IMG/VR virus record: IMGVR_UViG_3300027742_000011
Source: a virus
Reading direction: 5' to 3' (one strand)
Length of the DNA stretch: 64,000 bases
Of this stretch, positions 8,993 through 58,003 are shown one piece after another. Position 1 is the stretch's first letter. Each line of letters starts with the position of its first letter. The position numbers and the translations under genes are program-made. Under the pieces are notes generated by a model that saw only the letters and a program-made list of their open reading frames with translations, ran no database searches and had not been told where the DNA came from.

Positions 8993-9156
8993 GGTCGAAC
9001 TCCTTGAAAAACAAACCTAGGGGTTCTACCGTTAAACCCACCGCCACCATTTAAAAACAACTTCATCGTGCGCAACTTCTTCATATTAGGACTTTTCATA
9101 AGAGTGTAATTGGTGTTAGTTTCGATTACAGCATTTTCGATGATTTTATATTTCAT
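8989..9156 (-). CDS. Small hypothetical protein (55 aa)
   Basis: Manual translation MKYKIIENAVIETNTN...LNGGGGFNGRTPRF; ATGA overlaps at both ends. Confidence 0.65.
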   Translation of the reverse strand: MKYKIIENAVIETNTNYTLMKSPNMKKLRTMKLFLNGGGGFNGRTPRFVFQGVRP

Positions 9157-9707
9157 TTAAAGTCCTTGATCTTGTGTTTAAATTCATCATTAGTTCTTTT
9201 ACCCATCGGTGTATTATCCGTTGTTGATGGTTCACCGATTAGATTTTGGGCAGTTTCTTCCACGTCATACAATTTCATTCGTGATCGATCAATACCGATT
9301 GTAAAACGTCGGTTAGTTGTTGTATCACAGTATCGATTTTTCAGCTGTTTTACCATAACCTGATTTACACTTTCAAGTTCTTCTGACGATATAAGTGCTA
9401 ACATTAAATCAGCGGTTGCTGGAAGACCAAAACTGTTCTTGGTCAATACACCATTACAATAGAATAGATTATCACCTGAAGTAGAAATATCCACAGTTTC
9501 CATTTCTCCCATCGGTTCAATCGCCATAATACGTTCATTGTAATCAATTTCAGAATCAGACAACTTTTGTTTATCAAGCTTTTCAGTTTCAAGCTTATAC
9601 AACAAGTCAGTTAGAACATCGACAGGCATATCTCCAACCGGGTATTCATTTAGCACTAACCATTCTGCTTTCGCGAGACATTGCAAATATAGATTATCAG
9701 TTGGCAT
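9153..9707 (-). CDS. gp41: gp41 replicative helicase fragment 3: C-intein 2 plus C-terminal extein
   Basis: ...TVDISTSGDNLFYCNGVLTKN|SFGLPATADLM; likely start MPTDN at 9707 with GGAG 7 nt upstream. Confidence 0.9.
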   Translation of the reverse strand: MPTDNLYLQCLAKAEWLVLNEYPVGDMPVDVLTDLLYKLETEKLDKQKLSDSEIDYNERIMAIEPMGEMETVDISTSGDNLFYCNGVLTKNSFGLPATADLMLALISSEELESVNQVMVKQLKNRYCDTTTNRRFTIGIDRSRMKLYDVEETAQNLIGEPSTTDNTPMGKRTNDEFKHKIKDFK

Positions 9708-9981
9708 TAGTTTTCTCCACATTTAAATAATCGCCAACACTTAGCATTCCACTTTCAATAGAAATTCTACCACGCTTAGTTGGAAACACATGTTCAGCCG
9801 AAACGATAATAGTTTTGCCTGACTCGAGCTTAATCTCATAACACTGTTTGAGCTTGGAATGATGCACCATGTGGACAGTCTTATAGCGATCATTAGATGT
9901 TATCTGGTCGCCGACTTTTACATCTTTAATTTTCTTCTTACTACCATCAATTAGAGTCACTTCTTCCTCGGCATAGATACA
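9435..9981 (-). mobile_element. Split intein 2 in gp41 (N-half 9700-9981, 94 aa; C-half ends at 9435)
   Basis: DTSE|CIYAEEEV...SAEHVFPT (blocks A and B); LTKN|S (block G); resembles gp41-1-type split inteins. Confidence 0.9.
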
Positions 9982-10929
9982 CTCTGAGGTGTCAGTCAAC
10001 TCAACATCAGAGTTGTTAAATCCAGAACGCGTAACTTGGGTAGCTGAAAAAATGGGAACATCATATTCAACAGCTAGACCACGAATTTCTTCAGCAATAG
10101 ATTTAATGTATGTGTATGAGTTTACATTTGAACCAGTTTTAACACGAGACGATGCACAGATGTTGATATAATCAATATAGATCATATCTGGCACGAAACG
10201 CTTTTTGATCTTCAACTCATTCAAAAGGTGACGGAAGTGACCAGCATGAGCAGAAGATGTTGGATATTCTTTAACAATCAGTTTACCAAGAGTTCTGGAT
10301 TTTACTTTCTCGATTTGCTTAGTGTAATAATCCTTTGGAGCATTTTCCAAATCTTGAATCTTGATGTTGAGTAGATTTGCATCGATACGTTCTGCAATCT
10401 TTTCTTCAGCCATTTCCATAGTGATATAAAGGACATTTTTATTATCCATCAAGTTGGCTGCAGCGAAGTGACACATTGCCAAACTTTTGCCAACACCTGT
10501 ATTGTGAGATTCAATTCCAGCAGTATAATACCTATGATTGTCATGATTAACCTGAATATCTACAATTGGAATTTTTTGACCAGTCAAATTTACAGATACA
10601 TTTGAAACGCCATCCTTAGTCATGATTTTAGGTAAAGAGTTTTCTGAAACCGTATGACCACCCATCCGATTTTGCTTAAAGTGCATGCATTTTATTTCCA
10701 AATCACCTGCGGATATCCATTCACCTAAAGGAGTTTTGAATAAGTGATCAGAATTACATCTGACAGTATAACCGTTTTCAGTTTCTACAAAATATTCTTC
10801 GTGCTCACCCTTATCTACAAAGGTATTAACACCTACCCAACCATCGGGCGAATCTACTTCAATTTCATATCCGTCTTTTAACAACTGATCAATATCACCA
10901 ATTGGCATTTCTTTTTCAACCCAATTCAT
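9697..10929 (-). CDS. gp41: gp41 fragment 2: C-intein 1, helicase core, N-intein 2
   Basis: ...YYTAGIESHN|TGVGKSLAMC (Walker A), YITMEM, IYIDYINI, ATQVTRSG, DTSE|CIYA. Confidence 0.92.
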   Translation of the reverse strand: MNWVEKEMPIGDIDQLLKDGYEIEVDSPDGWVGVNTFVDKGEHEEYFVETENGYTVRCNSDHLFKTPLGEWISAGDLEIKCMHFKQNRMGGHTVSENSLPKIMTKDGVSNVSVNLTGQKIPIVDIQVNHDNHRYYTAGIESHNTGVGKSLAMCHFAAANLMDNKNVLYITMEMAEEKIAERIDANLLNIKIQDLENAPKDYYTKQIEKVKSRTLGKLIVKEYPTSSAHAGHFRHLLNELKIKKRFVPDMIYIDYINICASSRVKTGSNVNSYTYIKSIAEEIRGLAVEYDVPIFSATQVTRSGFNNSDVELTDTSECIYAEEEVTLIDGSKKKIKDVKVGDQITSNDRYKTVHMVHHSKLKQCYEIKLESGKTIIVSAEHVFPTKRGRISIESGMLSVGDYLNVEKTNAN

Positions 10930-10977
10930 AAAAACCTCAATTTAATAAATAATTCTAACAGGAACAGGAGTCTATAC

Positions 10978-11625
10978 ATGAATATTTATAAGAAAATATA
11001 CGATAAACTGTGCAAAAATGGAAAAAACTTAAAAGAGCATTATGCTCCTAAATCTAATATACATAAACACCACATCAGACCAAAGCATGCTGGCGGATTA
11101 GATAAAAATTCTAATTTTACCTATCTGACAGTAAGAGAGCACATCATAGCACATTTTCTACTTTGGAAAATATACCAAAGCCCAAACGATTTAAGAGCTA
11201 TGAAAATGTTAGGTGCAGAGCTTACACCTAAACAAAGATCAATTGTTGGTAAATATTGTCATGAAAATGGAATAGGATTTCATTCTAAAAAATATCAAAA
11301 CAATAAACAGTGGCATTTAGATAGAGCTAAAAAATCAAGTGAAACCCAAAGGAAAAATAAGATTGGAGCTTTTTTTGATCCTGAGCTTAAAAAGGAAATA
11401 GCTTCTAAAGGTGGTAAAGAAGGCGTAAAAACCCAAAGGAAAAATAAGATTGGAGCTTTTTTTGATCCTGAGCTTAAAAAGGAAATAGCTTCTAAAGGTG
11501 GACAGGCGCTTAAAGGTTTAATATGCGTAACCAATGGAAAGCACAGGACAAGAATTAAACCAGAGCTCCTAAACAAATATATCTCGGAAGGATATAAAAA
11601 AGGTTTTACACTTTACGATATCTGA
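10978..11625 (+). CDS. Free-standing HNH homing endonuclease, antisense, inside the fractured gp41
   Basis: HKHHIRPKHAGG...LTVREHIIAHFLLW; AGGAG SD; AATAAATA upstream. Confidence 0.85.
   Translation: MNIYKKIYDKLCKNGKNLKEHYAPKSNIHKHHIRPKHAGGLDKNSNFTYLTVREHIIAHFLLWKIYQSPNDLRAMKMLGAELTPKQRSIVGKYCHENGIGFHSKKYQNNKQWHLDRAKKSSETQRKNKIGAFFDPELKKEIASKGGKEGVKTQRKNKIGAFFDPELKKEIASKGGQALKGLICVTNGKHRTRIKPELLNKYISEGYKKGFTLYDI
11342..11501 (+). repeat. 73-bp perfect direct repeat (11342-11414 and 11429-11501) in the HNH gene
   Basis: Offset 87 nt; encodes QRKNKIGAFFDPELKKEIASKGG twice. Confidence 0.9.
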
Positions 11626-12226
11626 CTTTTACCTTCGTTTCCGGGTGCACGCACCCTGCGAGGATGATTGTTAGAGTTTTACGTGATATGCCGCCTTTAG
11701 TGATATCATTCAGTTTAGCGATATCGAAAGGTACTTTGACTTCATCAAGGTGGTAATAATCGAAACGCCTATCAGCATCTTCGAGAAAGTCGTGACCAAT
11801 ATTCGTGTCAAATGATACTGCAAGGGCATCACTTAACATCTGTGGGATTGCGCCCTTCGATAAGTCTTTCTCCTCATCCATGACTTTAATCGATTCCATA
11901 ATAGCGTTATGGAGAGCTTTATCTTGACAAAACTTTTCAGTAGAGTCTGACAACCATTGGATTTGCTGTTCGCACTTTTCGAGTCCATCTAACGTTTCAG
12001 TGCATTCTTTAAACACCGCTTCTTCAATAGGAATTTTCTCGAGATCGAGATACAGTGCTTCTTTTGTTGGTGATGCGCTATACTTAGCTATATATCGTTC
12101 GATTAATTTATAAACGACTTTGTCTGCATTCCTGTGAAAATACTCAGGCTTTAAGAATGCAATCGTCTTACGGACGAATTCATCATTATATAATAGATTT
12201 GATAATATAATCTTCTCAATATTCAT
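11606..12226 (-). CDS. gp41: gp41 fragment 1: N-terminal domain plus 15-aa N-intein
   Basis: MNIEKIILSNL...SFDTNIGHDF...LNDITKGG...ILAG|CVHPET. Confidence 0.92.
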   Translation of the reverse strand: MNIEKIILSNLLYNDEFVRKTIAFLKPEYFHRNADKVVYKLIERYIAKYSASPTKEALYLDLEKIPIEEAVFKECTETLDGLEKCEQQIQWLSDSTEKFCQDKALHNAIMESIKVMDEEKDLSKGAIPQMLSDALAVSFDTNIGHDFLEDADRRFDYYHLDEVKVPFDIAKLNDITKGGISRKTLTIILAGCVHPETKVKVRYRKV

Positions 12227-12282
12227 TCAATCTCCACTTACTAATGTTGAGAGCAGCTTTATTTTGATACTGCTCTCGATTT

Positions 12283-12399
12283 CTACATATCTACAAATTT
12301 TCGCCAATGCGCTTTTTCTTCTGGAGTTTTTGCAGCATGCATCTTTTGACTATTTACCTGTATACCTCTATGTATACGAACTAAACCGAAATGTGACAT
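12283..12399 (-). CDS. Small hypothetical protein (38 aa)
   Basis: MSHFGLVRIHRG...RKFVDM*; AGGAG SD. Confidence 0.45.
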   Translation of the reverse strand: MSHFGLVRIHRGIQVNSQKMHAAKTPEEKAHWRKFVDM

Positions 12400-12441
12400 A
12401 TTATTCGTCTCCTATATTTGTTTATTTGCAGTGGGATGTCG

Positions 12442-12690
12442 TTATTCTTTAACATACTCGAGAACTTCGACTTTTCGTGTAAATTCTATGGAAACTTTCA
12501 CGATCCTATACCTCTCATCTATTCGCGTTAAATGTCTAAAAAAAGATGTGGCCGTCAATCGGTCTTCAATAATAAAAGCTTCATCAGCTGGCACCCATTC
12601 TGGAGAAATATATTTCTGCTGATATCTATCAGTAAAACCTTTTCTCTTTAGAAAACAATTAGTTTGAGTATCTATTAGGGCGTAATACAT
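12442..12690 (-). CDS. Hypothetical protein
   Basis: 82-aa ORF coupled to the uvsX stop. Confidence 0.6.
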   Translation of the reverse strand: MYYALIDTQTNCFLKRKGFTDRYQQKYISPEWVPADEAFIIEDRLTATSFFRHLTRIDERYRIVKVSIEFTRKVEVLEYVKE

Positions 12691-13757
12691 TATTCGTCTT
12701 CTATATTTTCAAATACTTCCGCGACTTCATCTTCTTCAACAAGTTTACCATGCGATACTTGATATGTTTTCTTCACAAAATCTTGAAACTTTTCACATGC
12801 TATAATTGGTTCCCAAAATTCGGCGGTATTGGTCTCTTTTAACCTTAAGTTTTTTCCTATAATTTCACCTGTATCCATATTTACTCGCTGGTACCAACCC
12901 ATTTTAGGCTTTATCACATGACCAGCTTCTAAAGCTAAATCTAAAAGACCAGACCATTTAGAAATACCACCAGTAAACTTGACAGTAATAGGAATTTTAG
13001 ATTTTTCTTTAACATATCTAGATTTTTCTACGTTAATAATGAAGTTATAACCAAGAAGTTCTTTTCCGTCTTTATCTTGCTGTCTACCGATAATAAACAC
13101 ATTGTCGGACGAATACATTCCTCCAGACCCGCCGGATACGATGGGCTTACTGAACATTTCCATAGTCATGTAAACATGATTAACTACCAACATTGGAATA
13201 TTTTTTAGATTTAAGTGTGGAGTTACCATTCTAAAGAATGACTTTAATTGTTTAGCTCTAGTCATATCAGCTACAGATTTTCCATCAATTGCATCATCTA
13301 CTTCCTTTTTAGAAGCCATATTACCAATAGAATCTATAGCGATTACGAGCTTATCTCCTCTAACAACGTCTTTTAGTTGCGTCATAACATCAAATTTCAT
13401 TTGTTCAATGTCAGTCAGTGGTGTATGGACCACTCTTTCCATATCTAAACCTACAGCATCAAAATACCCCTTTGGAGTACCAAATTCTGAATCATAAAAC
13501 AAACATACTGCATCTGGATATTTGTCCATGTAGGCTTTTACTGAAATTAAGGTGAAAAGTGTTTTAAAGTGACGAGATGGGCCGGCCCACTGAGTAAGTC
13601 CCGGTGTTAAACCACCATGTAAGTCGCCAGAATACGCGACATTAATAGCAGGAATAGATGTCGTAATCATATCTTTAGCATTAAAGAATTCAGATTCAGA
13701 TAGAACTGCAGTTTCTTTAATTGTTGAATTTTTTTTAATTTTATCCAATAGTGACAT
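12690..13757 (-). CDS. uvsX: RecA-like recombinase UvsX
   Basis: AGPSRHFKT Walker A, YDSEFG, IDSIGN, VSGGSG. Confidence 0.95.
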   Translation of the reverse strand: MSLLDKIKKNSTIKETAVLSESEFFNAKDMITTSIPAINVAYSGDLHGGLTPGLTQWAGPSRHFKTLFTLISVKAYMDKYPDAVCLFYDSEFGTPKGYFDAVGLDMERVVHTPLTDIEQMKFDVMTQLKDVVRGDKLVIAIDSIGNMASKKEVDDAIDGKSVADMTRAKQLKSFFRMVTPHLNLKNIPMLVVNHVYMTMEMFSKPIVSGGSGGMYSSDNVFIIGRQQDKDGKELLGYNFIINVEKSRYVKEKSKIPITVKFTGGISKWSGLLDLALEAGHVIKPKMGWYQRVNMDTGEIIGKNLRLKETNTAEFWEPIIACEKFQDFVKKTYQVSHGKLVEEDEVAEVFENIEDE

Positions 13758-13980: not shown

Positions 13981-14332
13981 TCCGTGGTTTCCTTTTATGC
14001 GGTGGTTCTTTTTCCCATAAATTTCCACTATTAATTATGTCTTGACGATGTTCATCTAATGTTTTAGGTTTAAATTCTTTTTCCATCTCTTTAAAATACA
14101 GAGGTTTGAGATCAATTAGAAAAGTTCTGAGGCGGTCAGCCAAGTCAATATCATTTTCAGATCCGTCTACATTATCGAGCAGTTCAATCAATCTATTTAC
14201 CGTAAACTCATCTAGAGGTAATTGTTTAGAAATTCTATTATAATAGTATGCTTGCTCCCAAATGTGCATTCGTTGGGCGCTCTGTTCAGCACAAGTTTCA
14301 TAATTTGTATAATATTCATTTAAATTGATCAT
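13973..14332 (-). CDS. Hypothetical protein
   Basis: ATGA-coupled to the gp43 stop. Confidence 0.6.
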   Translation of the reverse strand: MINLNEYYTNYETCAEQSAQRMHIWEQAYYYNRISKQLPLDEFTVNRLIELLDNVDGSENDIDLADRLRTFLIDLKPLYFKEMEKEFKPKTLDEHRQDIINSGNLWEKEPPHKRKPRNG

Positions 14333-15264
14333 GAGAACCAATCCTCCAACGTTGATACCTTTTCAGCATTCCATCCGATAGCTTTCAGTATAGATTGCAG
14401 GGGATCAATAAACGACTTTTCAAACTGTAAATCGTAATCAATGTATCTCTCTATCTCGAACTCAGGCGGCAGATTGTCTGGACATGCTACAACGTTCGAA
14501 AAGTATGGATTTGGCTGTTTAAGTTGAGCATACCGAATTTTATCGCCGCTGCCTATCTGCTCATATTTATCACCAATATCGTGTTCTTTTAGCAATCTAT
14601 TAAATAAAATTGAACCTTTTACATGGATGGGAGTACCGCTTACGAATCCTTCTTTCGAAGCCCATTTATCTATATCCGAGATACCTCGGGGAAATGCGAT
14701 TTGTTCGAAGTCGAACTCTGTAAATTCATCTCTAAATTTCTCAACATATTCTTGAAGATCACTTTCCTCTTTCAACATGATAATTTTCAGGGCATTCTTA
14801 ATTGCATTTCTACAAACCGCAGGAGTAGATGATTTGATCGCTTCGATACCAGACATTTTAAGTTTAGGCTCTGAGTATTCAACTCCTTCTTGGTTGAATA
14901 CGTTGAGAATATATCTCTTCTTCGCAGTCCAAATTCCCTTGTTGGCTATGCATTCTCTCTTCATTTGCATTTTCTGTTGAGATGCCTGCATCATTTCTGC
15001 GAGTTCTTCGTAATAACGATCGATAGCTGGCTCAAGCTTCTTTTCACAGTATTGATCAAGAATTCTAGATATTTCTTGATCGGATTTGCCTTCAGGAATT
15101 ACCTTCTTGACAAGTTCATCTAGAGTAATGTAAACTGAATTATGCACGCATATATCATTAGCAAAAAAGTTATGATTATCTTCAACTTCTATATCATAAA
15201 CATAATCTTCAATCTCACCTAAATCTTCTACTGTATAGTTTAAATCAAATTTTAGTTCTGACAT
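14329..15264 (-). CDS. gp43: gp43 DNA polymerase C-terminal fragment (42-aa C-intein plus extein)
   Basis: VYDIEVEDNHNFFANDICVHN|SVYIT; KKRYILN; MSGIEAIKSSTP. Confidence 0.93.
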   Translation of the reverse strand: MSELKFDLNYTVEDLGEIEDYVYDIEVEDNHNFFANDICVHNSVYITLDELVKKVIPEGKSDQEISRILDQYCEKKLEPAIDRYYEELAEMMQASQQKMQMKRECIANKGIWTAKKRYILNVFNQEGVEYSEPKLKMSGIEAIKSSTPAVCRNAIKNALKIIMLKEESDLQEYVEKFRDEFTEFDFEQIAFPRGISDIDKWASKEGFVSGTPIHVKGSILFNRLLKEHDIGDKYEQIGSGDKIRYAQLKQPNPYFSNVVACPDNLPPEFEIERYIDYDLQFEKSFIDPLQSILKAIGWNAEKVSTLEDWFS

Positions 15265-16312
15265 GTTTTAAAATTCTTTCAATGGTTTTATTAGGATCTT
15301 TTGTATAATCATATTCCCAAATGGTAATGCATTCAATGTTACGCTTTTCTAATATTAGTTTTAATTTATAATCGTCTTCTTCCCATCTCTCTTTAGCCTT
15401 CACTTTAGTCTGACCCCGCCCCCTTAAGCATTCATTCGGATGATATAATTTTGGATTTCCATGATAATGATCTCCATGATATTCTATTGCAAAATTTAGT
15501 TCTGGACAAACGAAATCGTATTTTTTATAAGTGTTGTTATCTAAAATGCCATACTCACCGCCATTTTCCGCATAATAGCATTTCTTGTGTGTAAATGGTT
15601 CTGACCTTATTAGTTTAGAAAATAACCTCTGTGATGCTTTTGAGTATGGCGATTTTGATTTTCTTACATATTCTTCATATTTAATTTTACCATCATCGCC
15701 ATATTTTCTGATGAAATTTTCTAAAGTTAATGCCTTTTTAGAATTAATTTCTAAATATTTGGATTTTCCTAAGTACTCTTCTGTATTTGTATATGCTTGC
15801 TTTTTACAATATTCATCGAATCTTCTTGTACCTTCATATTCGCCGTATTTTGAAACTAAATTCTCTAATGTAACTGCTCTAGATTTATTAAATTCATCAA
15901 ATTTAGTCTTTGTCCATCCGTGTTTTTTATTTTTATACTCAAAGGAATTTGTATATGCTTGCTTTTTACAATATTCATCGAATCTTCTTGTACCTTCATC
16001 TTCGCCGTATTTTGAAACTAAATTCTCTAAAGTTATGGCCTTTAGAGAATTTAGTTTATCATACTTTTGTTTTCCTAATTCTTCACCGTACATTAAAATG
16101 CATTTTTCTAGAGATACAACTGATCCTAAGTGTAAACAAGTCTTAACAATATGATACAAATCATCTATGTTTGGATTTCGGTATTTAATAATATTTTCAA
16201 CCGAAGATTTGTGTATGTTATTTTCTAAATATTCAATCTGGCTGCATGTTAAACTGCATTCAATGTTTACTTCTGAACCGTATTTCTTATATTTTCTTAT
16301 TATTTTCTTCAT
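15245..16312 (-). CDS. Homing endonuclease, Vsr/PD-(D/E)XK-like, between the gp43 halves
   Basis: YDFVCPELNFAIEYHGDHYHG, ITIWEYD; N-terminal TLENxxxKYG repeats. Confidence 0.8.
   Translation of the reverse strand: MKKIIRKYKKYGSEVNIECSLTCSQIEYLENNIHKSSVENIIKYRNPNIDDLYHIVKTCLHLGSVVSLEKCILMYGEELGKQKYDKLNSLKAITLENLVSKYGEDEGTRRFDEYCKKQAYTNSFEYKNKKHGWTKTKFDEFNKSRAVTLENLVSKYGEYEGTRRFDEYCKKQAYTNTEEYLGKSKYLEINSKKALTLENFIRKYGDDGKIKYEEYVRKSKSPYSKASQRLFSKLIRSEPFTHKKCYYAENGGEYGILDNNTYKKYDFVCPELNFAIEYHGDHYHGNPKLYHPNECLRGRGQTKVKAKERWEEDDYKLKLILEKRNIECITIWEYDYTKDPNKTIERILKHVRTKI
15786..16030 (-). repeat. 83-bp direct repeat with 1 mismatch (15786-15868 and 15948-16030)
   Basis: Offset 162 nt; encodes LENLVSKYGExEGTRRFDEYCKKQAYT twice. 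Confidence 0.9.
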
Positions 16313-18389
16313 CTGTTATCATTGAATCCTTATCTGTTCCTATTATATTTATAATACTGTGAATTTTTGGATTCAGTTTATGTGGTTTTATAGATGATAT
16401 TTTTTTTGTGTTTACGTTCCGTGCTATAATACTATGATCTTCTGTGACAACAACAGACTTCCCGTCATTGTTCGTAATCCTAAACATCCTCTTTTTTACT
16501 TTATGTTTCATAACATAATTAATACTTTTTGTTTCTAATTTTCCTTCCTTAGAAACTGAAGGCGTAGTGTCATTTTCACACAATTTAACATAATTGTGAT
16601 TAAATTTATCGCACTTTAAGAAAATGTCTTCTTTGAGATTATAATAATCTTCAATTGTCATATCTACACCGTTTACATTTATAACAGACTCACCAACGAC
16701 TGAATCCGTATCAGACGCGATCACATAATCAGCGTTTTCAGTACCAAGAAGTTTGTTGAAATATTCATTCAAGCGGTCTGCAATCCATCTAATTGAAAGC
16801 TGGCCAGACATTGTAATAGCTTCAGCATGATTAATATCATACCAACGGAAATACCTGTTGCCGAGAGCACCATAAGCTGAGTTGAGCTGAATCTTTTTAG
16901 CCATTTGAAGATTATTGAGCTTAGATATTATTTTCTCTAATTCCCACCTCTCTTTCTTATCAGAAGTGATCTGAAGCTTCTGTTGAGCGCTGATCATTTG
17001 CTTCTTGTAGACTTTACGATCATTATACATTTTCTGCATAAGAGCTGCAAGAAAACCTTGTTCGCTCTTGTCGTAAAAGCACCCATTGGCGCAATATGAA
17101 TATTGGTCGTCTAGGTTCACCTTTCTTTCTAAAAGATCATCAATCGACGGGAACCCTGACATCTTACCTCTGAATTTCTCAGGTGAGATATTATATTGCA
17201 TGATAAGGTGTGGATATAGTGAATTCAAGTCAAATGATATCACCCACTTGTGTAGACCGGTTTGAGGTGCCTTAACATAACCACCAACTAGTGGAGCATT
17301 AAATCCTGGTTCATTTTTCATTGGGATCACGTAACCCTGATCCATCAGATAATTGTGGATCATGATGTCCCATTGACGAACTGAAGCTAAAGTATCTTGA
17401 TAGTTTACTTTCGCGTCATACGCTAGAGCAAAAACTAGATCAATGAGTTTAAGTTTTTCTTCTAATTTGAAAACCAAATCGACATCGTGAATATTGTAGG
17501 CTACGTACTTTTGAGGATCTTTTGCATACAAGTCATCAAGGTTGCCATATTCAGAATAATCAATCTTCTTTTCACCAAGCTCCTCTTGACATATGAAGTC
17601 AAGTCTATAACTTTCACGTGGTGTATATATGAATTTCTTATAAAGCTGCATGTAATCTAATACAGCGATACCTTCAATTCTAAATGAAGGGCAAGGTTTA
17701 CCTTTGATATAAACTTCATACTGGTTCAATTTGCCCCAAGGGCTAAGTTCTTTAGCGAATTTCTCACCAAGAACACGAATAATTCTATTCACTAAATATG
17801 GAATATCATAAAATTCACAGTTCCAACCCGTAATTACATCGGGATCGAGATACTTCCAGATTTCTATAATCTTGATTAGCATCTCTCTTTCACTTTTACA
17901 ACGATAGTAAACTACGTTTTCATTAGTTTCTTCAAAGTCTTTCACACCAAACACGTAACGCATATTACCTTTTCTTAAGGTAACACAAGTGATTTCATTT
18001 GGTACTGTTGTAACTGAGGTTGCGATGTCCACTCTTCGAGTCATCGCGTTTTCGATATCTATACCTACAACCGAGATATTCTCAGGTTCATAGTTTATAG
18101 TGCCTTGGAAATTATCATAGATAAACGCATACTGAAAGGTTGAAAGACCGTAGATGGAGAAACCGCCCACATCTTCATATTGTTTAATAAATTGCCGTGC
18201 ATCGTACATCGTGTTGAAATTTTTCTTTTCAACATACTTACCATCAAGCGTTTTGAATTGTGTTTCTGTTGAAGCTGGTACGAATAAGTATGGGGAATAT
18301 GAATAGATTTCTTTATGGGGTTTTCCTGCCTTTACACCTTTAGCATATATTCTTCCCTTGTTAAGGAAGATGTTTGTGTAAAAATCCAT
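16287..18389 (-). CDS. gp43: gp43 family B DNA polymerase N-terminal fragment plus N-intein
   Basis: Exo DIE, FDIPY-like (YDIPY), YNIHDV; SFDLNSLYP; KIQLNSAYG; ASDTD|S. Confidence 0.95.
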   Translation of the reverse strand: MDFYTNIFLNKGRIYAKGVKAGKPHKEIYSYSPYLFVPASTETQFKTLDGKYVEKKNFNTMYDARQFIKQYEDVGGFSIYGLSTFQYAFIYDNFQGTINYEPENISVVGIDIENAMTRRVDIATSVTTVPNEITCVTLRKGNMRYVFGVKDFEETNENVVYYRCKSEREMLIKIIEIWKYLDPDVITGWNCEFYDIPYLVNRIIRVLGEKFAKELSPWGKLNQYEVYIKGKPCPSFRIEGIAVLDYMQLYKKFIYTPRESYRLDFICQEELGEKKIDYSEYGNLDDLYAKDPQKYVAYNIHDVDLVFKLEEKLKLIDLVFALAYDAKVNYQDTLASVRQWDIMIHNYLMDQGYVIPMKNEPGFNAPLVGGYVKAPQTGLHKWVISFDLNSLYPHLIMQYNISPEKFRGKMSGFPSIDDLLERKVNLDDQYSYCANGCFYDKSEQGFLAALMQKMYNDRKVYKKQMISAQQKLQITSDKKERWELEKIISKLNNLQMAKKIQLNSAYGALGNRYFRWYDINHAEAITMSGQLSIRWIADRLNEYFNKLLGTENADYVIASDTDSVVGESVINVNGVDMTIEDYYNLKEDIFLKCDKFNHNYVKLCENDTTPSVSKEGKLETKSINYVMKHKVKKRMFRITNNDGKSVVVTEDHSIIARNVNTKKISSIKPHKLNPKIHSIINIIGTDKDSMITDEENNKKI

Positions 18390-37675: not shown

Positions 37676-38341
37676 TCAGCTTCCGTACGAAGAAGATGCC
37701 TCGACCGCGATATAATATTCTACAAGTGGTCCTTTAAAGTGTGAAAGACCTTTTGATGAGATTTCGACTTCATAATCACCTGGCAAGACTTTTAAGTGTT
37801 CCGCTTTAATAATCATTTGGAACTTGTCAGATGTTTCTGACTTACCAACCGCAACACTATATCTGTCGGCAGATGGGTTTTTACTATCGATAGCATCAAG
37901 AGTAATATTTTCTCCGTCGCCGACGATGGCCATTTCTGGTAGGCTTAGAACGTTCAATGCTTTCATAAAATCATTAAGCACTTCAGCTTCAAGCTTGAAA
38001 GAGATTTCCGGTGCTGGAAATTTAATGTCCTTTTGTGGAGGAACAATAATCGTATTTGGATCTGCGAAGGTGTAATTGATCCTGCGACGACCTTCCTTAA
38101 GTGTAAGGTTCTTGTCTCCAATCTCCACATCTGCATTTTCGAAGAGTGAAAGAGTAGACAAGAACCTTGATAAATCGTAAATTGCAAAGCTTGATGCAAT
38201 ATTGTGTTCAATAGTCGCTTTTGCCAAAATGGTTTTATTGGCTGAGATTGTTGAAAGGGTATTACCAGCTTGGAACATGATTCCATGGTTAATGCCCGAA
38301 TAGTTTTTCAAAATCTGTAGTGTTACATCATCAAATTTCAT
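37676..38341 (-). CDS. gp45: Sliding clamp gp45
   Basis: MKFDDVTLQILKNYSGIN...FAIYDLSRFLS...YYIAVE; ATGA-coupled start. Confidence 0.93.
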   Translation of the reverse strand: MKFDDVTLQILKNYSGINHGIMFQAGNTLSTISANKTILAKATIEHNIASSFAIYDLSRFLSTLSLFENADVEIGDKNLTLKEGRRRINYTFADPNTIIVPPQKDIKFPAPEISFKLEAEVLNDFMKALNVLSLPEMAIVGDGENITLDAIDSKNPSADRYSVAVGKSETSDKFQMIIKAEHLKVLPGDYEVEISSKGLSHFKGPLVEYYIAVEASSSYGS

Positions 38342-39765
38342 AATATTTTCCATTTCGTAGTTCCACAATTCCAATAACGTCTATATCCGTTATTGAACAT
38401 ATTTTGTGCTTCAGTTAATTCATTATTAAAGTGATCTAATAATTTATGTTGTTTATGTTTCTGGGCGGCAAGTCTATTTATCGTACCAATATCCTTTCTC
38501 CAATAATAATAACTTGGTGAGTTTACATGTTCTTCGCTAAAGCCACATTGAAGATATGATTTGCCATCAAACTTATCATTATCGGAATATGATATAAGAT
38601 TATCTGAATATGTCCTTAAAAAATGCTTTATCAATTTAGAGGTTCCTCCGACAACTGACGTATCCAATTTATGACACATTCTTATAAGTTCATATGTTTT
38701 ATCTTTTGTATATCTACTTATGCCAAATGTTGCAACAGACACAAGATTATTTTTATAAAAAAGACCAATTTTTATAGAGGAATTTGTATATCCTTTAAGG
38801 TGATTTTCATTAATAAATCCTCTAGCAATATTTGTGTCTAATTTTTTAATATCTGTATTTCGACCATATATTCTGATGTTTGATAATCCTAATCTACTTT
38901 TAATGATAGATTTTATAATATCTTGTTTTTCGTACCATTCATAGTCGGTAAAACTCAAAAACTTTAAACCCACATCTCTACATTTTTTATATTTTGTAAA
39001 GTGTTTGTTTTTTTCGTCTTGATCTTCTCTATAATTATATGAGTGCCAATAAATTCCATTAACTTCTATTGCCAAATCATTTACTAAAATGTCTATCTCT
39101 AAAGGAGGTATGCGAGTCCTATCATTCTGTTTAGTTTCAAGTCCTAATGATTCTACATAATCATTTACTTCTCTTTGGGGAGTTGATACATCATGTGAAG
39201 GAAATTCTAAATCAAATTCATTTATTCTTTGACACAAGAATGAATAACTTATTCCATATTCAGAGCAAATATCATATAACCTAGGTTTCTTTAATAATAA
39301 TTCTTCTACAAATGACTTATCACGAAAAAACTGTGTATTGTTATCGCGCTGCATTGGGTGGCCACCATTTGAATTCCAAGTATCTATTCTTTTTTGTATA
39401 GAAACACTAGACTTTGACGGGTGATCTACACCATATTTTTCCATGCAAGTCGATTTAATTTTTTCTTGAACGTTATTATCTAAAAATACATTTTTTACAC
39501 CATACTTTTTATATGATGTATTTTCTCTAGATTTTTCCATACAAGATCTATCACCACACGTCTTTAAATACCCTTTAATGAATGATTTAAAAATTTTTGG
39601 CTTTTCACAAAAACATTTCTGTATATCAAAATTGTTATGATAACAATAAGCAGCTTCTACAATGTTTTCTGTATTATATTTAGATGATAGTTTTTCTGTA
39701 AGTTTACTATCTTTTAATATAGCAGACTTTCTTATTGAACCATCACCTAAAATGGGAAGTTTCAT
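38338..39765 (-). CDS. Hef-like homing endonuclease (PD-(D/E)XK core plus C-terminal domain)
   Basis: KKYGVKN repeats, EIDILV..LAIEVNGIYWHS, NGYRRYWNCG. Confidence 0.8.
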   Translation of the reverse strand: MKLPILGDGSIRKSAILKDSKLTEKLSSKYNTENIVEAAYCYHNNFDIQKCFCEKPKIFKSFIKGYLKTCGDRSCMEKSRENTSYKKYGVKNVFLDNNVQEKIKSTCMEKYGVDHPSKSSVSIQKRIDTWNSNGGHPMQRDNNTQFFRDKSFVEELLLKKPRLYDICSEYGISYSFLCQRINEFDLEFPSHDVSTPQREVNDYVESLGLETKQNDRTRIPPLEIDILVNDLAIEVNGIYWHSYNYREDQDEKNKHFTKYKKCRDVGLKFLSFTDYEWYEKQDIIKSIIKSRLGLSNIRIYGRNTDIKKLDTNIARGFINENHLKGYTNSSIKIGLFYKNNLVSVATFGISRYTKDKTYELIRMCHKLDTSVVGGTSKLIKHFLRTYSDNLISYSDNDKFDGKSYLQCGFSEEHVNSPSYYYWRKDIGTINRLAAQKHKQHKLLDHFNNELTEAQNMFNNGYRRYWNCGTTKWKIL

Positions 39766-40873
39766 TTTTTCTTCTTCATGGTATTCATATCAACGGTTGC
39801 CGCTTGACCAATAGACGCTAAGTCCTTTAAGCTACCACCAAAGATATACATTCCAACGTGTTGTAGTTCCATCCAAGGGCAGAGCCACACTTTCATTCCT
39901 GCTTTACGTGTCCATTGGCAAAACATATAATCTTCACTTAAGTATCTATTCGAATCTTCACAAATCGGAGTATCAAAATACGCCATAATTTGTCTAGAAC
40001 CGTCAAAATGTTCTGTTCGCACGTGATCTGGCTTATAAAGTTGTTGTGGATATGCTTCTGCAAACTTTACAAAAGTATTTTTCCTAATCATCATAAACCC
40101 TGTTCCAGACTCTAGAACCTCTACTGGCTCGTCAATTCTGATCGTCTGTTTGCCGCCGGCTGGATTAAAGACATAATCACCTACAAACTTATCAAGAGTA
40201 TTTGGATCTTCATCCGCAACACCTTTATCTACAGCAGCCTTAATCTTTTCCCAAGAAATGCTTTTCTTAGGATATGGACCACAGATAACGTCATATTCAT
40301 CGTTGTCTGGGTTTTGATCTTGTAATGCTAATAGTGCAATTACGTCATTAGCATTAAAACCAATATCCGAATCGATAAACATCATATGAGTGCAGTCTGA
40401 TCTTATAAATTCATCCGCACAATAATTTCTAGCTCTAGTGATTAAACTTTCATTAAATAGAAAGTAGTGTTTAAGCTCAATTCCGTAGTGAGTGCAAAGT
40501 GTTGATAAATCTGCAATTGATCTAGTATACATTCCAGCACATTGTCCCAAAATATTCGTATTAATTCGCAAAATTAATACCGCATCAAATGCTGCTTTAT
40601 ATCACTATAAAGATTAGACTATATCTTCATCCTCTTTAAGAGGAGCTGGGCGCTTCGGAAAACATAAGCTTTTTTCCTACTCCTTTCGGATAGTCGTTGA
40701 ACCTTCTCTTTCGAGCTTGGCTGCTGATAATCTCTTTGAGACGTCCCAGCAATTCACCCAGTTATCATTTCTAAATTACTTTAGAATGAGGCAGATTTAC
40801 CATACATAGGGGTCGCAACCATCAATTTTCGTGTTTTTAGTGTTTCAATTGGTACATTAATGTTTACTGCCAT
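39762..40873 (-). CDS. GT-A-like glycosyltransferase, spliced (exon 1 40799-40873, exon 2 39762-40547; 286 aa)
   Basis: Joined reading VATPMYG|GQCAGMY; FIDSD (DxD), ESGTGFMMI, YLSEDY. Confidence 0.85.
40548..40798 (-). mobile_element. ORF-less group I intron, 251 nt
   Basis: Exon ends in U and intron ends in G; P AATTGCTGGGAC, Q TATCAGCAGCC, R GTTCAACGACTA, S AAGATATAGTCT; P7 GACTA/TAGTC; GNRA-capped P6, P8, P9. Confidence 0.92.
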
Positions 40874-40875
40874 AT

Positions 40876-41505
40876 TTATTTTCCTTTTCTGTTTTTACTA
40901 ATTAACATTTTTGTTTTGTTAGTATGTTTTTTCCCATAAAACGGATTATTTTTACCTGATTTATCGTAATTTCCGAATTTTGAATCCTTTGGTATTATTC
41001 TACCTTTATTCCAAGTTGAATATTTTTCATCAAAAACTTCTTTTGTAACTCTTTTATTTTTTAAGCCATCATTTATCCAAATTTTGTTTTTGTGATTACC
41101 ATCCGCCGAAAGAAAAGCTTCCAAGTGTTTTTTTCTATTTTCTTTACATAAAAATTGATTAGTTGCACTTTCTCTTAATTTTTCTTTTAGAGCATCATCC
41201 ATTATTATAGCAAAACCGCCAACAGATTTATTTAACCAAAAATCCCAATTGCCAGAATTATATAATTCTTTAAGATAATGGTGTTCATATTTAATGGCAT
41301 TCGTTATATTCTCAAATCTTTCATCTATAATAATCATGTCTGGCTCACCATTTTTATCTCTAAAATAATGAACATATTTAGATGATGTGAAATATTTTAT
41401 CCACAGATCATCTTCTGGTGCACATTCATTAGCATATCGAACACCATAATAATAAACATTAAATTTTGACCAGCCTATTATATATGTATACGCTTCGTTA
41501 TTCAT
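40876..41505 (-). CDS. Free-standing GIY-YIG (Seg-like) homing endonuclease with NUMOD3
   Basis: AYTYIIG...YYYGVR, YFTSS, GKNNPFYGKKHT. Confidence 0.82.
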   Translation of the reverse strand: MNNEAYTYIIGWSKFNVYYYGVRYANECAPEDDLWIKYFTSSKYVHYFRDKNGEPDMIIIDERFENITNAIKYEHHYLKELYNSGNWDFWLNKSVGGFAIIMDDALKEKLRESATNQFLCKENRKKHLEAFLSADGNHKNKIWINDGLKNKRVTKEVFDEKYSTWNKGRIIPKDSKFGNYDKSGKNNPFYGKKHTNKTKMLISKNRKGK

Positions 41506-41522
41506 TTTTATACTCCCATGTA

Positions 41523-41530
41523 TATTTATA
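41523..41530 (-). promoter_or_regulatory. T4-type late promoter of the GIY-YIG gene
   Basis: Exact TATAAATA. Confidence 0.75.
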
Positions 41531-41547
41531 CATAGAAGTATTTAAAG

Positions 41548-41619
41548 CTACATTGGGGTCGCAACCATCAATTTTCGTGTTTTTAGTGTTTCAATTGGTA
41601 CATTAATATTTACTGCCAT
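41548..41619 (-). pseudogene. Truncated copy of glycosyltransferase exon 1
   Basis: MAVNINVPIETLKTRKLMVATPM*; 41550-41619 matches 40804-40873 with 2 mismatches in 70 bp. Confidence 0.88.
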
Positions 41620-41669
41620 TTATAGTATTCCTTTATTATATATAGTATATTACTGGAGATTAGTTAATC

Positions 41670-43277
41670 ATGAAGAATTTTATTCAAGAAAATTGTATGA
41701 CAAAGACTGGCAGAATTGGTTTCAATAACAGATGCCATAATAGTATTTGGTGGGAAAATAAGAATTTTCATAATCAACTCAATAAAATTGTATCTCTGAC
41801 ATCATTTTTGAAAGATGCGTCTTCAACAGTGCCACAAAGATGTTGGCATATTCTCAATGATATTTATATAACTCCTACATGTAAGAATAATAAATGTAAT
41901 GAAAATACAAATTTTAAATCTTTCTCTAAAGGTTATTATAACTATTGTAGTAAGAAATGTTCTTCACAATGTGAAGAACGCAATAAAAAAATAGTTAATA
42001 ATACTAATCATGCAGAGATGGTTAAAAATCTTAAGAGGTCAAATTTAGAAAGATATGATGTAGAATATAGTTTTCAGAGAAAAGACGTAAAGAATAAATC
42101 AAAAAAGACTAAACTTAAAAAATATGGTGATAGTAATTATTGTAATTTTGAAAAGGCAAAGAAAACTAACATTAAAAAATATGGCTCTGAGTTTTATTTT
42201 TCATCAGATATCGGTAAAGGTGTGTTAGAAAAGATGCGAATTCAAAATAATGGTTCTTTAAAATTAGATAAGGCTACAAACACCCTTTTAAATGATATTA
42301 ATTATCTTAAAGAAATGAATAAGAATTTAAATATTGATGAGATAGCTGATGAACTAAACGTGACTAGAACAGGTCTCAAAAATATTTTAGTAAAAAATGA
42401 TATAGAATTAAAGAAACATAAAAGAAAAACTAAGCTACATACTCAGGAAGAAATTTATGATTACTGTAAACATCTTACTGATAAAGTTGTGTGGAATGAT
42501 AGGAAAGCAATTAATCCAAAAGAATTAGACATCTATTTCCCAGATCATAGCGTTGCTATAGAATTAAATGGTTTATATTGGCATTCATATAATTATATAG
42601 AAAATTCTGAAGAGAAGATGAAACATTATGCAAAATATCAAGAGTGTAAAGACAAAGGAATTAGATTAATACAATTAACAGACCGTGACTGGTCGAATAA
42701 GAAAGATATATGCAAAGGAATAATTGCTAATTCGGTTGGAGTATGTAGTGAAAAAATTAGAGCCTCTAAATGTGTAATTCGAAAAATGAATACAAAGGAA
42801 GCTAAGGAATTTCTAAATGATAATCATATACAAGGGTATTCAGCATCATCAATAAAACTGGGTCTTTATTATAAAGAAACCTTAGTTTATATCATGACAT
42901 TTTCTAAACCAAGATTCAGTGTTAAATATGATTATGAGCTCATTAGATGTTGTTCTAAATTAAACACAAAAGTATATGGTGCAGCATCTAAGATATTAAA
43001 ATATTTCAATAAAAATTCTATCATTAGTTATTGTGATATATCAAAATTTGAAGGTAAATTATATGAGAGTCTTGGTTTTGAATATAGTCACGCATCTAAA
43101 CCAAATTATTTCTACTTTAAGAAAGATGTAATTATTCCAAGATATAAGGCTCAAAAAGCCAACCTTCATAAAATTCTTGATGTTTTCGATTCAAATAAAA
43201 CAGAAGCTGAAAACATGTTCATTAACAATTATAGAAGATATTGGGATTGTGGGAACAGTGTGTTTATTCTGGAATAG
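41670..43277 (+). CDS. Hef-like homing endonuclease, antisense
   Basis: ELDIYFPD..AIELNGLYWHS, NNYRRYWDCG. Confidence 0.8.
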   Translation: MKNFIQENCMTKTGRIGFNNRCHNSIWWENKNFHNQLNKIVSLTSFLKDASSTVPQRCWHILNDIYITPTCKNNKCNENTNFKSFSKGYYNYCSKKCSSQCEERNKKIVNNTNHAEMVKNLKRSNLERYDVEYSFQRKDVKNKSKKTKLKKYGDSNYCNFEKAKKTNIKKYGSEFYFSSDIGKGVLEKMRIQNNGSLKLDKATNTLLNDINYLKEMNKNLNIDEIADELNVTRTGLKNILVKNDIELKKHKRKTKLHTQEEIYDYCKHLTDKVVWNDRKAINPKELDIYFPDHSVAIELNGLYWHSYNYIENSEEKMKHYAKYQECKDKGIRLIQLTDRDWSNKKDICKGIIANSVGVCSEKIRASKCVIRKMNTKEAKEFLNDNHIQGYSASSIKLGLYYKETLVYIMTFSKPRFSVKYDYELIRCCSKLNTKVYGAASKILKYFNKNSIISYCDISKFEGKLYESLGFEYSHASKPNYFYFKKDVIIPRYKAQKANLHKILDVFDSNKTEAENMFINNYRRYWDCGNSVFILE

Positions 43278-43440
43278 TAATAATCTGCGATTCACTGCTT
43301 GTCGGAATAAACACAATGGAGTCATTCTCTGTCAAAAACCCATCTTTAAGCAGCTTGTTTTTAATTTTGCGCGACGTACTCACAAAATCTTTATCTAGCG
43401 GATTATTATTCTCGCTATTTAGACGATATACTAGTTTCAT
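43264..43440 (-). CDS. Small hypothetical protein (58 aa)
   Basis: Manual translation MKLVYRLNSENNNPLDK...ITIPE*. Confidence 0.45.
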   Translation of the reverse strand: MKLVYRLNSENNNPLDKDFVSTSRKIKNKLLKDGFLTENDSIVFIPTSSESQIITIPE

Positions 43441-43708
43441 TTTTATTATCCTTAGTTTGTTGTATTAATCTCTTCGCAAAGAATTCAATTTTCTCTGCGT
43501 CATAGAGATATGAATTTCCAGGCTTACCATTTCCTTGGCGAGCTGCGGTCATTCTCCACACAGCTTTAAGAATGTTTCCCTCAGCAAAAGACATGCCGAG
43601 CGCTTCGATAATATCGTTACACTCGGCATCATATTCTTCTCCTAATGTAGTAGGATGTTTAACGTGAACTCGATAATAATCGTTTGATCCGCCAGACAAT
43701 CTCTTCAT
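43415..43708 (-). CDS. DUF3310-like protein
   Basis: SNDYY...ECNDIIEALGMSFAEGNILKAVWR...YDAEK. Confidence 0.65.
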   Translation of the reverse strand: MKRLSGGSNDYYRVHVKHPTTLGEEYDAECNDIIEALGMSFAEGNILKAVWRMTAARQGNGKPGNSYLYDAEKIEFFAKRLIQQTKDNKNETSISSK

Positions 43709-44920
43709 TCAAAAAAACCCCATAACTGAACTTTCATTTCTATTGATTTCTTCCAGAACTTCTCTCGAATTGTTGTTCTGGAGTAGATATTTAGCCTCGA
43801 CCCAGTTTCTGTTTCCCTGTAAAGATTCTTTAATTTCAGTCGCCATATCCATAGCAGTTTTTACTGGAACATTTTGGCATATGTGGTTGATTGATTTTCG
43901 AGGGCTTAACAGTTCAAAGTCTGCAGGCATTCCCATAATAGTCATCGCTTCTCTAAAAGTAATGTAGCGATCTTCGACTGGATGGGTTAAGCGCTTCGGG
44001 TAAAGACCTACAAAAGCACCGATATGATCTTTTGGAATGATCACACCTCGCCTCATAATATCTTTTCCACTCTGCAACTTATTGTATTTATACACACATT
44101 CATCATATTCTTTAGAAAAGTTATGTTTTTTCATCCATTCTGCTACATCCATATAAGAATATCCCATCTTCTCGATGTAAGCGAAAGTGTCATTTTCACG
44201 AACAGATTTGGCAGGCTCTACTAGTTTAGAATGTTCTGTATGTGATCTTCCATTGTGGATTACTTCTAATATAAACCGATAATATGGATTAACTGATGGT
44301 GCTTTGCGGTTAATAGGCTCTTGTTGAGAATTAATGCTGGCTGCAGATTTGATTTCCTCTTCAATTGTAGTTCTAGGTCTAGAATAATAATTGAAGATCG
44401 GAACCTTATTCCCTTTCCAAAAGAAATAGAACGATCTTTCTCTAACTTGAGATATACCATGCAGTAGACTTTTGGTTCTATAAGCGGACATCGAATATCC
44501 GAACTCATCGGCAATATCAATCATCTCTTCTCTAAATGTCTTGCCGATTTTACCAACAAATCCTGGTGCATTTTCAGAAAAGAAAACTTTTGGTTTAATT
44601 TTTTCTAAAACAAATTTTGTTGTTTTTATCATCCAATCGTTATTAACGTTAGAATCGCCATATTTATTGCTTAATTGAGATAAACCCGCGCACGGACAAA
44701 TACTACCAACAATATCTACATTATAGTTTATACACGGTATACCATCATCTAAATTGTAATATGGAATATTATTATTATAGTAGTTTAATAAATGGCTATC
44801 ATTCTCTTTAAATGCACTATAACTCAAAATATATTTAGGTTTTTGGTTTAAAACTTTACCTATAGCTATGTCTAATCCGCCTATTAAGGGAACAATAGAA
44901 GCGTATGTTATATTTGTCAT
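43709..44920 (-). CDS. C5-cytosine methyltransferase-fold protein with atypical SAM motifs
   Basis: CPCAGLS (IV), ENAP (VI), QVRERS (VIII), ITFREA (IX); motif I reads IVPLIGG and motif X reads CQNVP. Confidence 0.8.
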   Translation of the reverse strand: MTNITYASIVPLIGGLDIAIGKVLNQKPKYILSYSAFKENDSHLLNYYNNNIPYYNLDDGIPCINYNVDIVGSICPCAGLSQLSNKYGDSNVNNDWMIKTTKFVLEKIKPKVFFSENAPGFVGKIGKTFREEMIDIADEFGYSMSAYRTKSLLHGISQVRERSFYFFWKGNKVPIFNYYSRPRTTIEEEIKSAASINSQQEPINRKAPSVNPYYRFILEVIHNGRSHTEHSKLVEPAKSVRENDTFAYIEKMGYSYMDVAEWMKKHNFSKEYDECVYKYNKLQSGKDIMRRGVIIPKDHIGAFVGLYPKRLTHPVEDRYITFREAMTIMGMPADFELLSPRKSINHICQNVPVKTAMDMATEIKESLQGNRNWVEAKYLLQNNNSREVLEEINRNESSVMGFF

Positions 44921-56163: not shown

Positions 56164-57203
56164 AAAGAGCTGTGAGAAACATGTCAAGTTTCTGTTGCGT
56201 TTCTGGTTTCTTATCGATAACTTCCGCGGACTTTCTTAAAATTGAAAGTGTGTCTTCGGCCTCTTCGATCATATCGTCATCTTCTAAATTTAGATTAAGA
56301 TTATCTTCGATAATTTGAAGGTCTAAAACACCTGCGGCTTCGACCTTATCGATGAACATATCAAAGTGGTATGGGTTTGTTTTATTATGTATAATGACTT
56401 TCACGTACGAGCCACTTAAATATTCAGTATCGAAAGCTAAAAGATCCTCTAATGGTTTGGCGGAGTCATTATAATGAAGCTTATGGAACATTTTATAAGG
56501 ATTTTGGATAAACTCCAACTCTCTAGTGTGAGTGTCGTACACGTGGAATCCTCTATCATCATCCCAATCCGACCACGTTATCTCGTACGGGCTCCCAAGA
56601 TATGAGATATTACCTCGACTCGATTTATGGTGAAAGTGCCCTGAGTATACTGTATCAAATTTAGAAAATATGTCTGTTGGAAACCCATGATCGTTTACTG
56701 CGCCGCGATACATCTCGAAACCTTGAATTTCAAGATGACCAAACAGCACGTCAGCTTTCGTAGATTTTATATATTCCATAGATTCGAGATAGTTTCCTGA
56801 GCATACCCATGGAAGAATAGCTAAAGTGATATCATCAATCTTGATGTCAGTTGGTTCTGAATGGTATTTAATATTGAGTTTACTGTGACCATACAATTCA
56901 TTCATTGAATTGTACTCGTTCGTATTTTTAAATGCTGTATCATGATTTCCGATAATCACATCAGTGCTAATACCCAATTCATCAAATTTGGAAAGGAATC
57001 GTTTAAGATTACGAGCTGTCACGTAGTTGATATATTTTCTACGATCAACAATATCACCTAAGTGGATGCAATGTTTAATGTTGTTTTCTTTCAAATATGG
57101 AAAGAAAATATTGTCATAAAACTTATTAAAATATTCTGCGAAAGCTAAACTGTCACCTCTGGCACCGAAAGTGCGTGTCAGTAATTAAAGCTATACGTGC
57201 CAT
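56138..57203 (-). CDS. gp47: Recombination endonuclease nuclease subunit gp47 (Mre11/SbcD-like), with a +1 frameshift near 57168
   Basis: MARIALITDTHF in one frame after AGGAGG SD, then GARGDS...LGD..DRR, GNHD, GHLE, SGHFH in the +1 frame. Confidence 0.9.
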
Positions 57204-57975: not shown

Positions 57976-58003
57976 AGCTTACCCATTTCGGTGCTTACTA
58001 TGA

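Follow-up and report, generated by a model that had tools for sequence, protein, structure and literature searches.

The window that we analysed is a 64,000-nucleotide (nt) stretch of viral DNA (IMG/VR virus record IMGVR_UViG_3300027742_000011), and our subject is its gene for the replicative helicase gp41 of a T4-like phage. In this phage gp41 is encoded as three separate polypeptides, here called F1, F2 and F3. Their open reading frames (ORFs) lie on one strand and in their original order, with uvsX (12690-13757) directly upstream of them as in T4-like phages, which is an arrangement characteristic of fractured genes. A near-identity DNA search against GenBank phages returned no match, and we therefore take the phage to be uncultured. 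The features of the locus are as follows, with lengths in amino acids (aa).

11606-12226, minus strand: ORF of F1, 206 aa, comprising extein 1 and the N-half of intein 1.
11654..12226, minus strand: extein 1 of gp41, 191 aa, from the N-terminal domain to the first half of Walker A (…ILAG).
11609..11653, minus strand: N-half of intein 1, 15 aa, starting Cys-Val-His-Pro, an atypical split.
10978..11625, plus strand: HNH homing endonuclease gene, 215 aa, between the halves of intein 1.
9697-10929, minus strand: ORF of F2, 410 aa, comprising the C-half of intein 1, extein 2 and the N-half of intein 2.
10501..10929, minus strand: C-half of intein 1, 143 aa, with a Ser-His-Asn end followed by Thr+1.
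9982..10500, minus strand: extein 2, 173 aa, with TGVGKS and the RecA-like core, up to …DTSE.
9700..9981, minus strand: N-half of intein 2, 94 aa, first residue Cys.
9153-9722, minus strand: ORF of F3, 189 aa from the first ATG, comprising the C-half of intein 2 and extein 3.
9435..9722, minus strand: C-half of intein 2, 96 aa from the first ATG or 91 aa from the ATG at 9707.
9156..9434, minus strand: extein 3, 93 aa, from SFGLPATAD… to the C-terminus of gp41.

We joined the three exteins after cutting the pieces at ILAG/C, HN/T, TSE/C and KN/S (a slash marks the point of splicing or insertion throughout). The join has 191+173+93 = 457 aa, as checked against the coordinates. It is 57-59% identical to the intact gp41 of Stenotrophomonas phage DLP_6 and of three Synechococcus phages, with zero gaps at ILAG/TGVGKS and DTSE/SFGLPATAD, and at the two joins it reads ILAGTGVGKS and DTSESFGLPATAD, identical to the intact gp41 of DLP_6 and the Synechococcus phages. 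The structure of T4 gp41 (PDB 8DUE) also aligns across both junction points, with extein 2 corresponding to T4 residues 198-374 (expectation value, E, 4e-46) and extein 3 continuing along T4 gp41 at residues 373-435. Extein 1 matches the Pfam DnaB N-domain and phrog_19. Extein 2, which is up to 75% identical to gp41 of cultured phages, matches Pfam DnaB_C (E 4e-13), and a Pfam search with the whole of F3 gave no match. The joined product has the DnaB N-domain and the RecA-like C-domain with Walker A of the T4 gp41/DnaB family, colinear with intact members; all helicase motifs are intact and there are no internal stops. The gapless junctions and the matches to the T4 structure exclude a chance resemblance and confirm what an initial annotation, made from the letters alone, had read at this locus: three ORFs, two junctions that should align with intact homologues, and a 457-aa product in which Walker A and the SE-SFGLP motif are re-formed, as they are letter for letter. 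Its claim that the middle piece carries halves of two different inteins also holds, the C-half being of the VidaL family and the N-half related to gp41-1. The annotation did not mention the 15-aa split, the antisense endonuclease gene, the Lys-Asn end or the long C-half of intein 2, which are described below.

A GGAG or GAGG stands 5-7 nt before the ATG of F1, F2 and the plus-strand ORF (GGAG 5 nt before the F1 ATG and 7 nt before that of the plus-strand ORF). The start of F3 is most likely the second ATG (9707), for a protein of 184 aa whose ORF shares 11 nt with that of F2, because GGAG is found 7 nt upstream of it and the first ATG has no such site; independent gene calls also picked this ATG. 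The F2 and F3 ORFs overlap by 11-26 nt and there is no gene between them. Such a short overlap could also come from a frameshift, either an error or a programmed one, in which case intein 2 would be a cis intein and the gene would be in two pieces. We consider this highly improbable. Identical ORF structure is seen in independent assemblies, with the identical F2 protein on 5 contigs from at least two different sources (one an ENA assembly, another a Logan assembly of an SRA run), so that neither an artefact of assembly nor a frameshift accounts for the split. A diverged relative, the locus L085, has the same break with a different overlap (8 nt). An endonuclease gene of about 1 kilobase parts the same halves in the loci L005 (353 aa) and P0013 (357 aa) and in Shigella phage ESh36 (332 aa). 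Finally, F3-type proteins that stand alone number more than 100 in the databases, with lengths of 172-208 aa, and the ribosome binding site before the ATG at 9707 is a good one.

By homology, intein 1 is an atypically split intein of the VidaL family, located in the Walker A loop. Its C-half matches VidaL (PDB 6VGV) with E 1.8e-9, and a natural single-ORF (cis) relative in the IMG/VR contigs L010 and L011 covers the full VidaL chain (E 1.6e-13); this alignment places the split in the window at the position of VidaL's, after the second strand. The N-half, 15 aa in the window, is 14-23 aa long (mode 16) in 94 F1-type tails, whose consensus is CVHP[DE]TKVKIR.RK, with H3, P4 and T6 invariant and R11 present in 93 of the 94. 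The residues of a class-1 intein are in place: C1 in 94/94 tails, the block B His (H62) and the block F motif invariant in the homologues, and the SHN/T end in 108/108 database proteins that have this C-half at their start. Around …MHFKQNRMGGHTVSENS… (F2 residues about 81-98, approximately 10636-10689) the C-half in the window has an insertion of about 17 aa, which is absent from most of these 108 homologues. Relatives of intein 1 in GenBank phages are about 30-34% identical over the full 143 aa, and their host genes code for the terminase large subunit (Salmonella and Klebsiella phages, e.g. KpS110) or for a UvsX-like recombinase (PA5oct-like jumbo phages, e.g. Pseudomonas phage PA5oct). Judged from these relatives, the family occupies several different phage ATPase genes.

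Intein 2, again judged by homology, is a relative of gp41-1 that is split at the canonical position but is not the same allele. Its N-half matches gp41-1 (PDB 6QAZ) with E 1.2e-11 and the last 34 aa of its C-half match the gp41-1 C-terminus with E 1.7e-3. It is inserted at TSE/S, 13 residues downstream of the gp41-1 site RSGY/S, and its C-half has 91-96 aa against about 37 in gp41-1. The added length is a two-helix extension of about 55 aa, which precedes a 34-aa core ending in Thr-Lys-Asn; PHROGs gave no match for this C-half. AlphaFold2 predicted the extension as helices at residues 3-19 and 29-49, with a predicted local distance difference test score (pLDDT) of about 77-88, and the core alone as poorly ordered, which is expected for a split half. 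We compared 121 F3-type sequences, consisting of the window's own and the best 120 of 2278 database matches. The TKN/S end is present in 110 of them, the C-half is 83-102 aa long, and the extension carries a conserved motif of its own. In 39 homologues neither Cys1 (C317) nor the block B His (H380) varies, and the terminal Asn and Ser+1 are invariant in 101 aligned sequences (the window and 100 homologues), so that these residues of a class-1 intein are present at the second site as well. We had also considered the extension as the remnant of a deleted endonuclease and rejected this, since L005 and ESh36 have both the extension and an endonuclease gene between the halves.

We infer that two independent class-1 trans-splicing reactions very probably yield the 457-aa helicase from F1, F2 and F3, and this reading, which is that of the initial annotation, fits all the sequence tests that were run. 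F1 would be made as extein 1 with the 15-aa N-intein, and F3 as a C-intein of about 91 aa with extein 3. Intein 1 would join F1 to F2 and rebuild the Walker A loop, and intein 2 would join F2 to F3 and rebuild the TSE-SFGLPATAD segment. Several points weigh against two splicing reactions. Intein 2 lacks the penultimate His, having a Lys-Asn end where gp41-1 has Thr-His-Asn, and the block F His of gp41-1 is replaced by Asn. The Pfam Intein_splicing and Hint matches of its N-half are under the gathering cut-off, and its C-half bears the additional extension of about 55 aa. Transcription of F2 must pass the antisense endonuclease gene, and in a scan of 9000-12800 sigma-70-type promoters were not enriched, their counts and those of terminators not being above shuffles.

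The Lys-Asn end and the change of the block F His to Asn would also suit a different arrangement, in which one or both junctions are never spliced covalently and the pieces function as a helicase all the same, with the intein halves serving only as tight docking domains and intein 2 possibly catalytically dead. T4-like phages tolerate split replication genes without inteins, for example nrdA of Aeh1, a case cited in PMC2677866. We predicted the complex of the intein 2 halves, which scored 0.65 compared to 0.07 for the best of 3 controls; contacts agree between the runs to 88% or more, with a partner pLDDT of no less than 70. This mark is reached by 58 of 80 solved complexes and by 2 of 110 mismatched pairs, counts that are approximate since own alignments were used. 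The model supports binding of the two halves to each other, and it agrees with docking to this extent and is uninformative on the chemistry; since the gp41-1 complex is already solved, passing the mark may reflect this likeness only. We regard docking without splicing as unlikely. Cys1, the block B His, the terminal Asn and Ser/Thr+1 are invariant, or nearly so, over 39-121 diverged homologues, and docking alone would not need invariant catalytic residues. The Lys-Asn end is strictly conserved, which is not a pattern of decay; both it and the block F Asn are conserved traits of the family. Chen, Benner and Perler are said to have described, in 2000, some active inteins that do without the penultimate His.

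The plus-strand ORF between the halves of intein 1 (10978-11625) is a free-standing gene for a homing endonuclease of the HNH type (phrog_655, E 1.1e-19). The final 20 nt of this gene run antisense to the 3' end of F1, where they cover the stop and the last N-intein codons, and its product is 63% identical over the full length to the L085 counterpart. The endonuclease gene at site 1 is on the opposite strand in L005, L007, L009, L085 and L090, is on the same strand in L006, and is absent from L091 and the P0013 locus. Site 2 is without an endonuclease gene in both the window and L085. Neither site of gp41 in the window thus has the same-strand endonuclease gene between intein halves that is a further feature of fractured genes. 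A perfect tandem duplication of 87 nt (1.8 copies, 100% match) lies inside the HNH gene at 11342-11501 on the plus strand; it encodes a repeated KNKIGAFFDPELKKEIASKGG motif that Pfam reads as KGG repeats. The two copies have diverged in L085 and are identical in the window, which points to a duplication or conversion in the recent past. Another endonuclease-like ORF of the HNH type (57178-57978, minus strand, 266 aa), with a weak Pfam HNH_5 match, is distantly related to the endonuclease of the gp41 locus (phmmer E 2.5e-6) and adjoins genes resembling gp46 and gp47.

The comparison with L085, whose layout is identical to that of the window and whose F2 is 67% identical, also allowed us to estimate selection. 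Synonymous sites are saturated (pS, the proportion of synonymous change, is 0.65-0.95), and non-synonymous change (pN) amounts to 0.16-0.26 throughout, in the two inteins and the endonuclease as in the exteins. The ratio pN/pS is 0.18-0.39 across exteins, inteins and endonuclease, with 0.21-0.27 for the exteins and 0.32 for the endonuclease. These values indicate that every gp41, intein and endonuclease segment is under purifying selection. A gene that is interrupted twice and has an antisense endonuclease gene inside it could be a decaying helicase pseudogene, disrupted by mobile elements, with another helicase doing the work. The low extein ratios, the intact helicase motifs, the identity of 57-59% to functional gp41 without internal stops and a layout that is conserved in many phages all speak against this, and we give it hardly any credence. 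Purifying selection and the conserved layout together make both an artefact and a pseudogene very unlikely.

The initial annotation had called a three-piece gp41 unusual and had proposed a search of metagenomes for other such loci. Three-piece gp41 is also encoded at L085, L005, the P0013 locus, L090 and L091; in the last four, endonuclease genes are present or absent at either site. We then sorted the best 119 clusters (90% identity) matching F2 by build:

C-half of intein 1, extein 2 and N-intein at TSE/C (the type of the window): 38 clusters.
The same with the N-intein at the true gp41-1 site RSGY/C: 26 clusters.
The same with the N-intein at TTR/C: 2 clusters.
Two-piece, split at the P-loop only: 41 clusters.
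Split at site 2 only: 5 clusters.
Cis form of intein 1: 7 clusters.

Middle pieces of three-piece genes thus make up 66 of the 119 best F2-matching clusters. Three-piece gp41 is not rare and is common in uncultured phages, so that the word unusual stands for the literature searched and not for the databases. The L091 protein is GenBank CAB4162432.1 ('uncultured Caudovirales phage'), and its locus combines the P-loop split with the textbook gp41-1 arrangement, which has a GIY-YIG endonuclease gene and a C-half ending THN/S. Among 50,697 GenBank phage records the site-2 intein was found in Shigella phage ESh36 only (a cultured Tequatrovirus, ON528746.1, 23048-26028; locus L092). ESh36 has the same site-2 split (DIAE/C … TKN/SAGLPATAD) with a long C-half; it differs in that its gp41 is in two pieces, without a P-loop intein, and in the endonuclease-like ORF between the halves. 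In GenBank, where the record bears the mark UNVERIFIED, the pieces appear only as two 'DNA primase/helicase' coding sequences and a hypothetical protein. Relatives of intein 1 occur in 253 GenBank records; the 25 listed are in terminase genes, UvsX genes or unannotated ORFs, and none of these 25 carries a helicase annotation.

Topology probably keeps the halves of the two inteins from cross-reacting. Residues 30-87 of the C-half of intein 1 resemble residues 34-92 of gp41-1; this C-half already has the central strands and would thus lack no more than the 15-aa N-half. That short N-half, in turn, could complete only a C-half that is almost a whole intein, as the one of intein 1 is. The centre of the fold is contained both in the C-half of intein 1 and in the N-half of intein 2, so that these two would not complement each other, and a pairing of the 15-aa piece with the C-half of intein 2 would miss that centre. 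As to origin, free-standing homing endonuclease genes most likely produced the splits by invading cis mini-inteins, the course of events in the fractured-gene model; the endonuclease gene still stands, inverted, at site 1 and is absent from site 2. This model fits because the loci mix cis and split forms of intein 1 and the presence and absence of an endonuclease gene.

The components of this system have known counterparts. VidaL (PDB 6VGV/6VGW) is a natural intein with an atypical break behind the second strand, which leaves an N-half of 16 aa, and is used for protein semisynthesis. Intein 1 is homologous to it and shares the split position, the short basic N-half (…V.IR..KK), the dependence on Cys1 and the His-Asn end. 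Their identity is only about one third, the C-half in the window is longer by the loop of about 17 aa, the +1 residue is Thr, and intein 1 is paired with a second split intein in one host protein. For the second site, the closest known case is that of the fractured genes described by Dassa et al. 2009 (PMC2677866), which are broken in two only and consist of three ORFs on one strand, with endonucleases of the GIY-YIG or Vsr-like type. There the gp41-1 insertion RSGY/S corresponds to position 356 of P-SSM2 gp41 and the C-half has about 37 aa (PMC2677866). The likeness lies in the T4-like gp41 as host protein, in the homology of both intein 2 halves, in the canonical split and in the original gene order by uvsX; the gp41-7 locus of Dassa et al. 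also lacks an endonuclease gene, as does site 2 of the window. The differences are the insertion point (RSGY/S against TSE/S), the length of the C-half (about 37 against 91-96 aa) and its end (His-Asn against Lys-Asn), and at site 1 an opposite-strand HNH gene in place of a same-strand GIY-YIG or Vsr-like one.

Two inteins in one helicase are known from bacterial DnaB, where site b in the P-loop and site a in motif H4 each carry a cis intein (PMC4760082), and DnaBi1 and DnaBi2 of M. smegmatis are cis-splicing DnaB inteins (PMC6195587). The superfamily is the same, and in both cases the P-loop has one intein and the C-terminal DNA-binding region the other, where the second sites may be equivalent. 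The bacterial inteins, however, are contiguous and splice in cis within a single polypeptide, whereas both are split here and there are three gene products. A recent protein-editing method uses an engineered 'transposon' construct with VidaL or Cat together with Cfa, and the build of F2 is alike: an atypical long C-half, a cargo and a canonical N-half. That construct is man-made, with inteins from unrelated hosts that need kinetic tuning; the pair in the window co-occurs naturally. Since both intein families, fractured gp41 genes and DnaB with two cis inteins are already known, the three-piece split-intein gp41 is a new variant. We found no description of a natural gene cut in three by two split inteins in the full-text literature and reviews covered, a coverage that does not include the papers on the origin of VidaL, so this absence is not proof of novelty. 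Engineers build three-fragment ligations from orthogonal split inteins, and nature appears to hold hundreds of co-evolved pairs on one essential protein, which include the family with ultra-short (14-16 aa) N-halves and a gp41-1 relative with a Lys-Asn end and a helical module. The loci also form an evolutionary series of gene fracture by homing endonucleases, with intein 1 in cis or split and an endonuclease gene that some loci have and others lack at each site, in either orientation at site 1.

The family-B DNA polymerase gp43 of the window (14329-18389, minus strand) is also fractured:

16287-18389, minus strand: N-part of gp43, 700 aa, with an N-intein after …SDTD/S.
15245-16312, minus strand: endonuclease-like ORF within gp43, 355 aa, with a weak match to REase_MTES_1575 only.
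14329-15264, minus strand: C-part of gp43, starting with a C-intein that ends CVHN/SVY.

The gp43 N-intein matches the cysteine-less Aes123 PolB1 intein (PDB 9HTH) with E 9e-12. With two split inteins in gp41 and one in gp43, the replisome of this phage would depend on three split inteins, and an essential phage replisome may thus rely on three separate trans-splicing events. We offer, as a tentative and rather doubtful extension, that three-piece gp41 is a widespread, selectively maintained and undescribed natural three-fragment ligation, orthogonal through the pairing of an S1-split with a canonical split, and that with the split polymerase its splicing could be a checkpoint of replisome assembly or timing and not parasite baggage.

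The T4 late-promoter consensus TATAAATA has 13 exact matches in the window compared to 9.2 expected, which is not significant overall, and all 13 sit on the minus strand. One, at 10983-10990 (minus strand), lies about 54 nt before the F2 start, within the antisense endonuclease gene, and L085 has a match at a similar place, about 45 nt upstream of its F2. Another, at 16346-16353 (minus strand), lies a short way upstream of the endonuclease ORF within the polymerase gene. The region 38001-46000 has a low guanine-cytosine content (0.31, compared to 0.35-0.39 elsewhere in the window). A NUMOD3-motif ORF (40876-41541, minus strand) and a 537-aa ORF (41664-43277, plus strand) that weakly matches DUF7487 lie in this region, which is possibly a further cluster of mobile or endonuclease-like genes.

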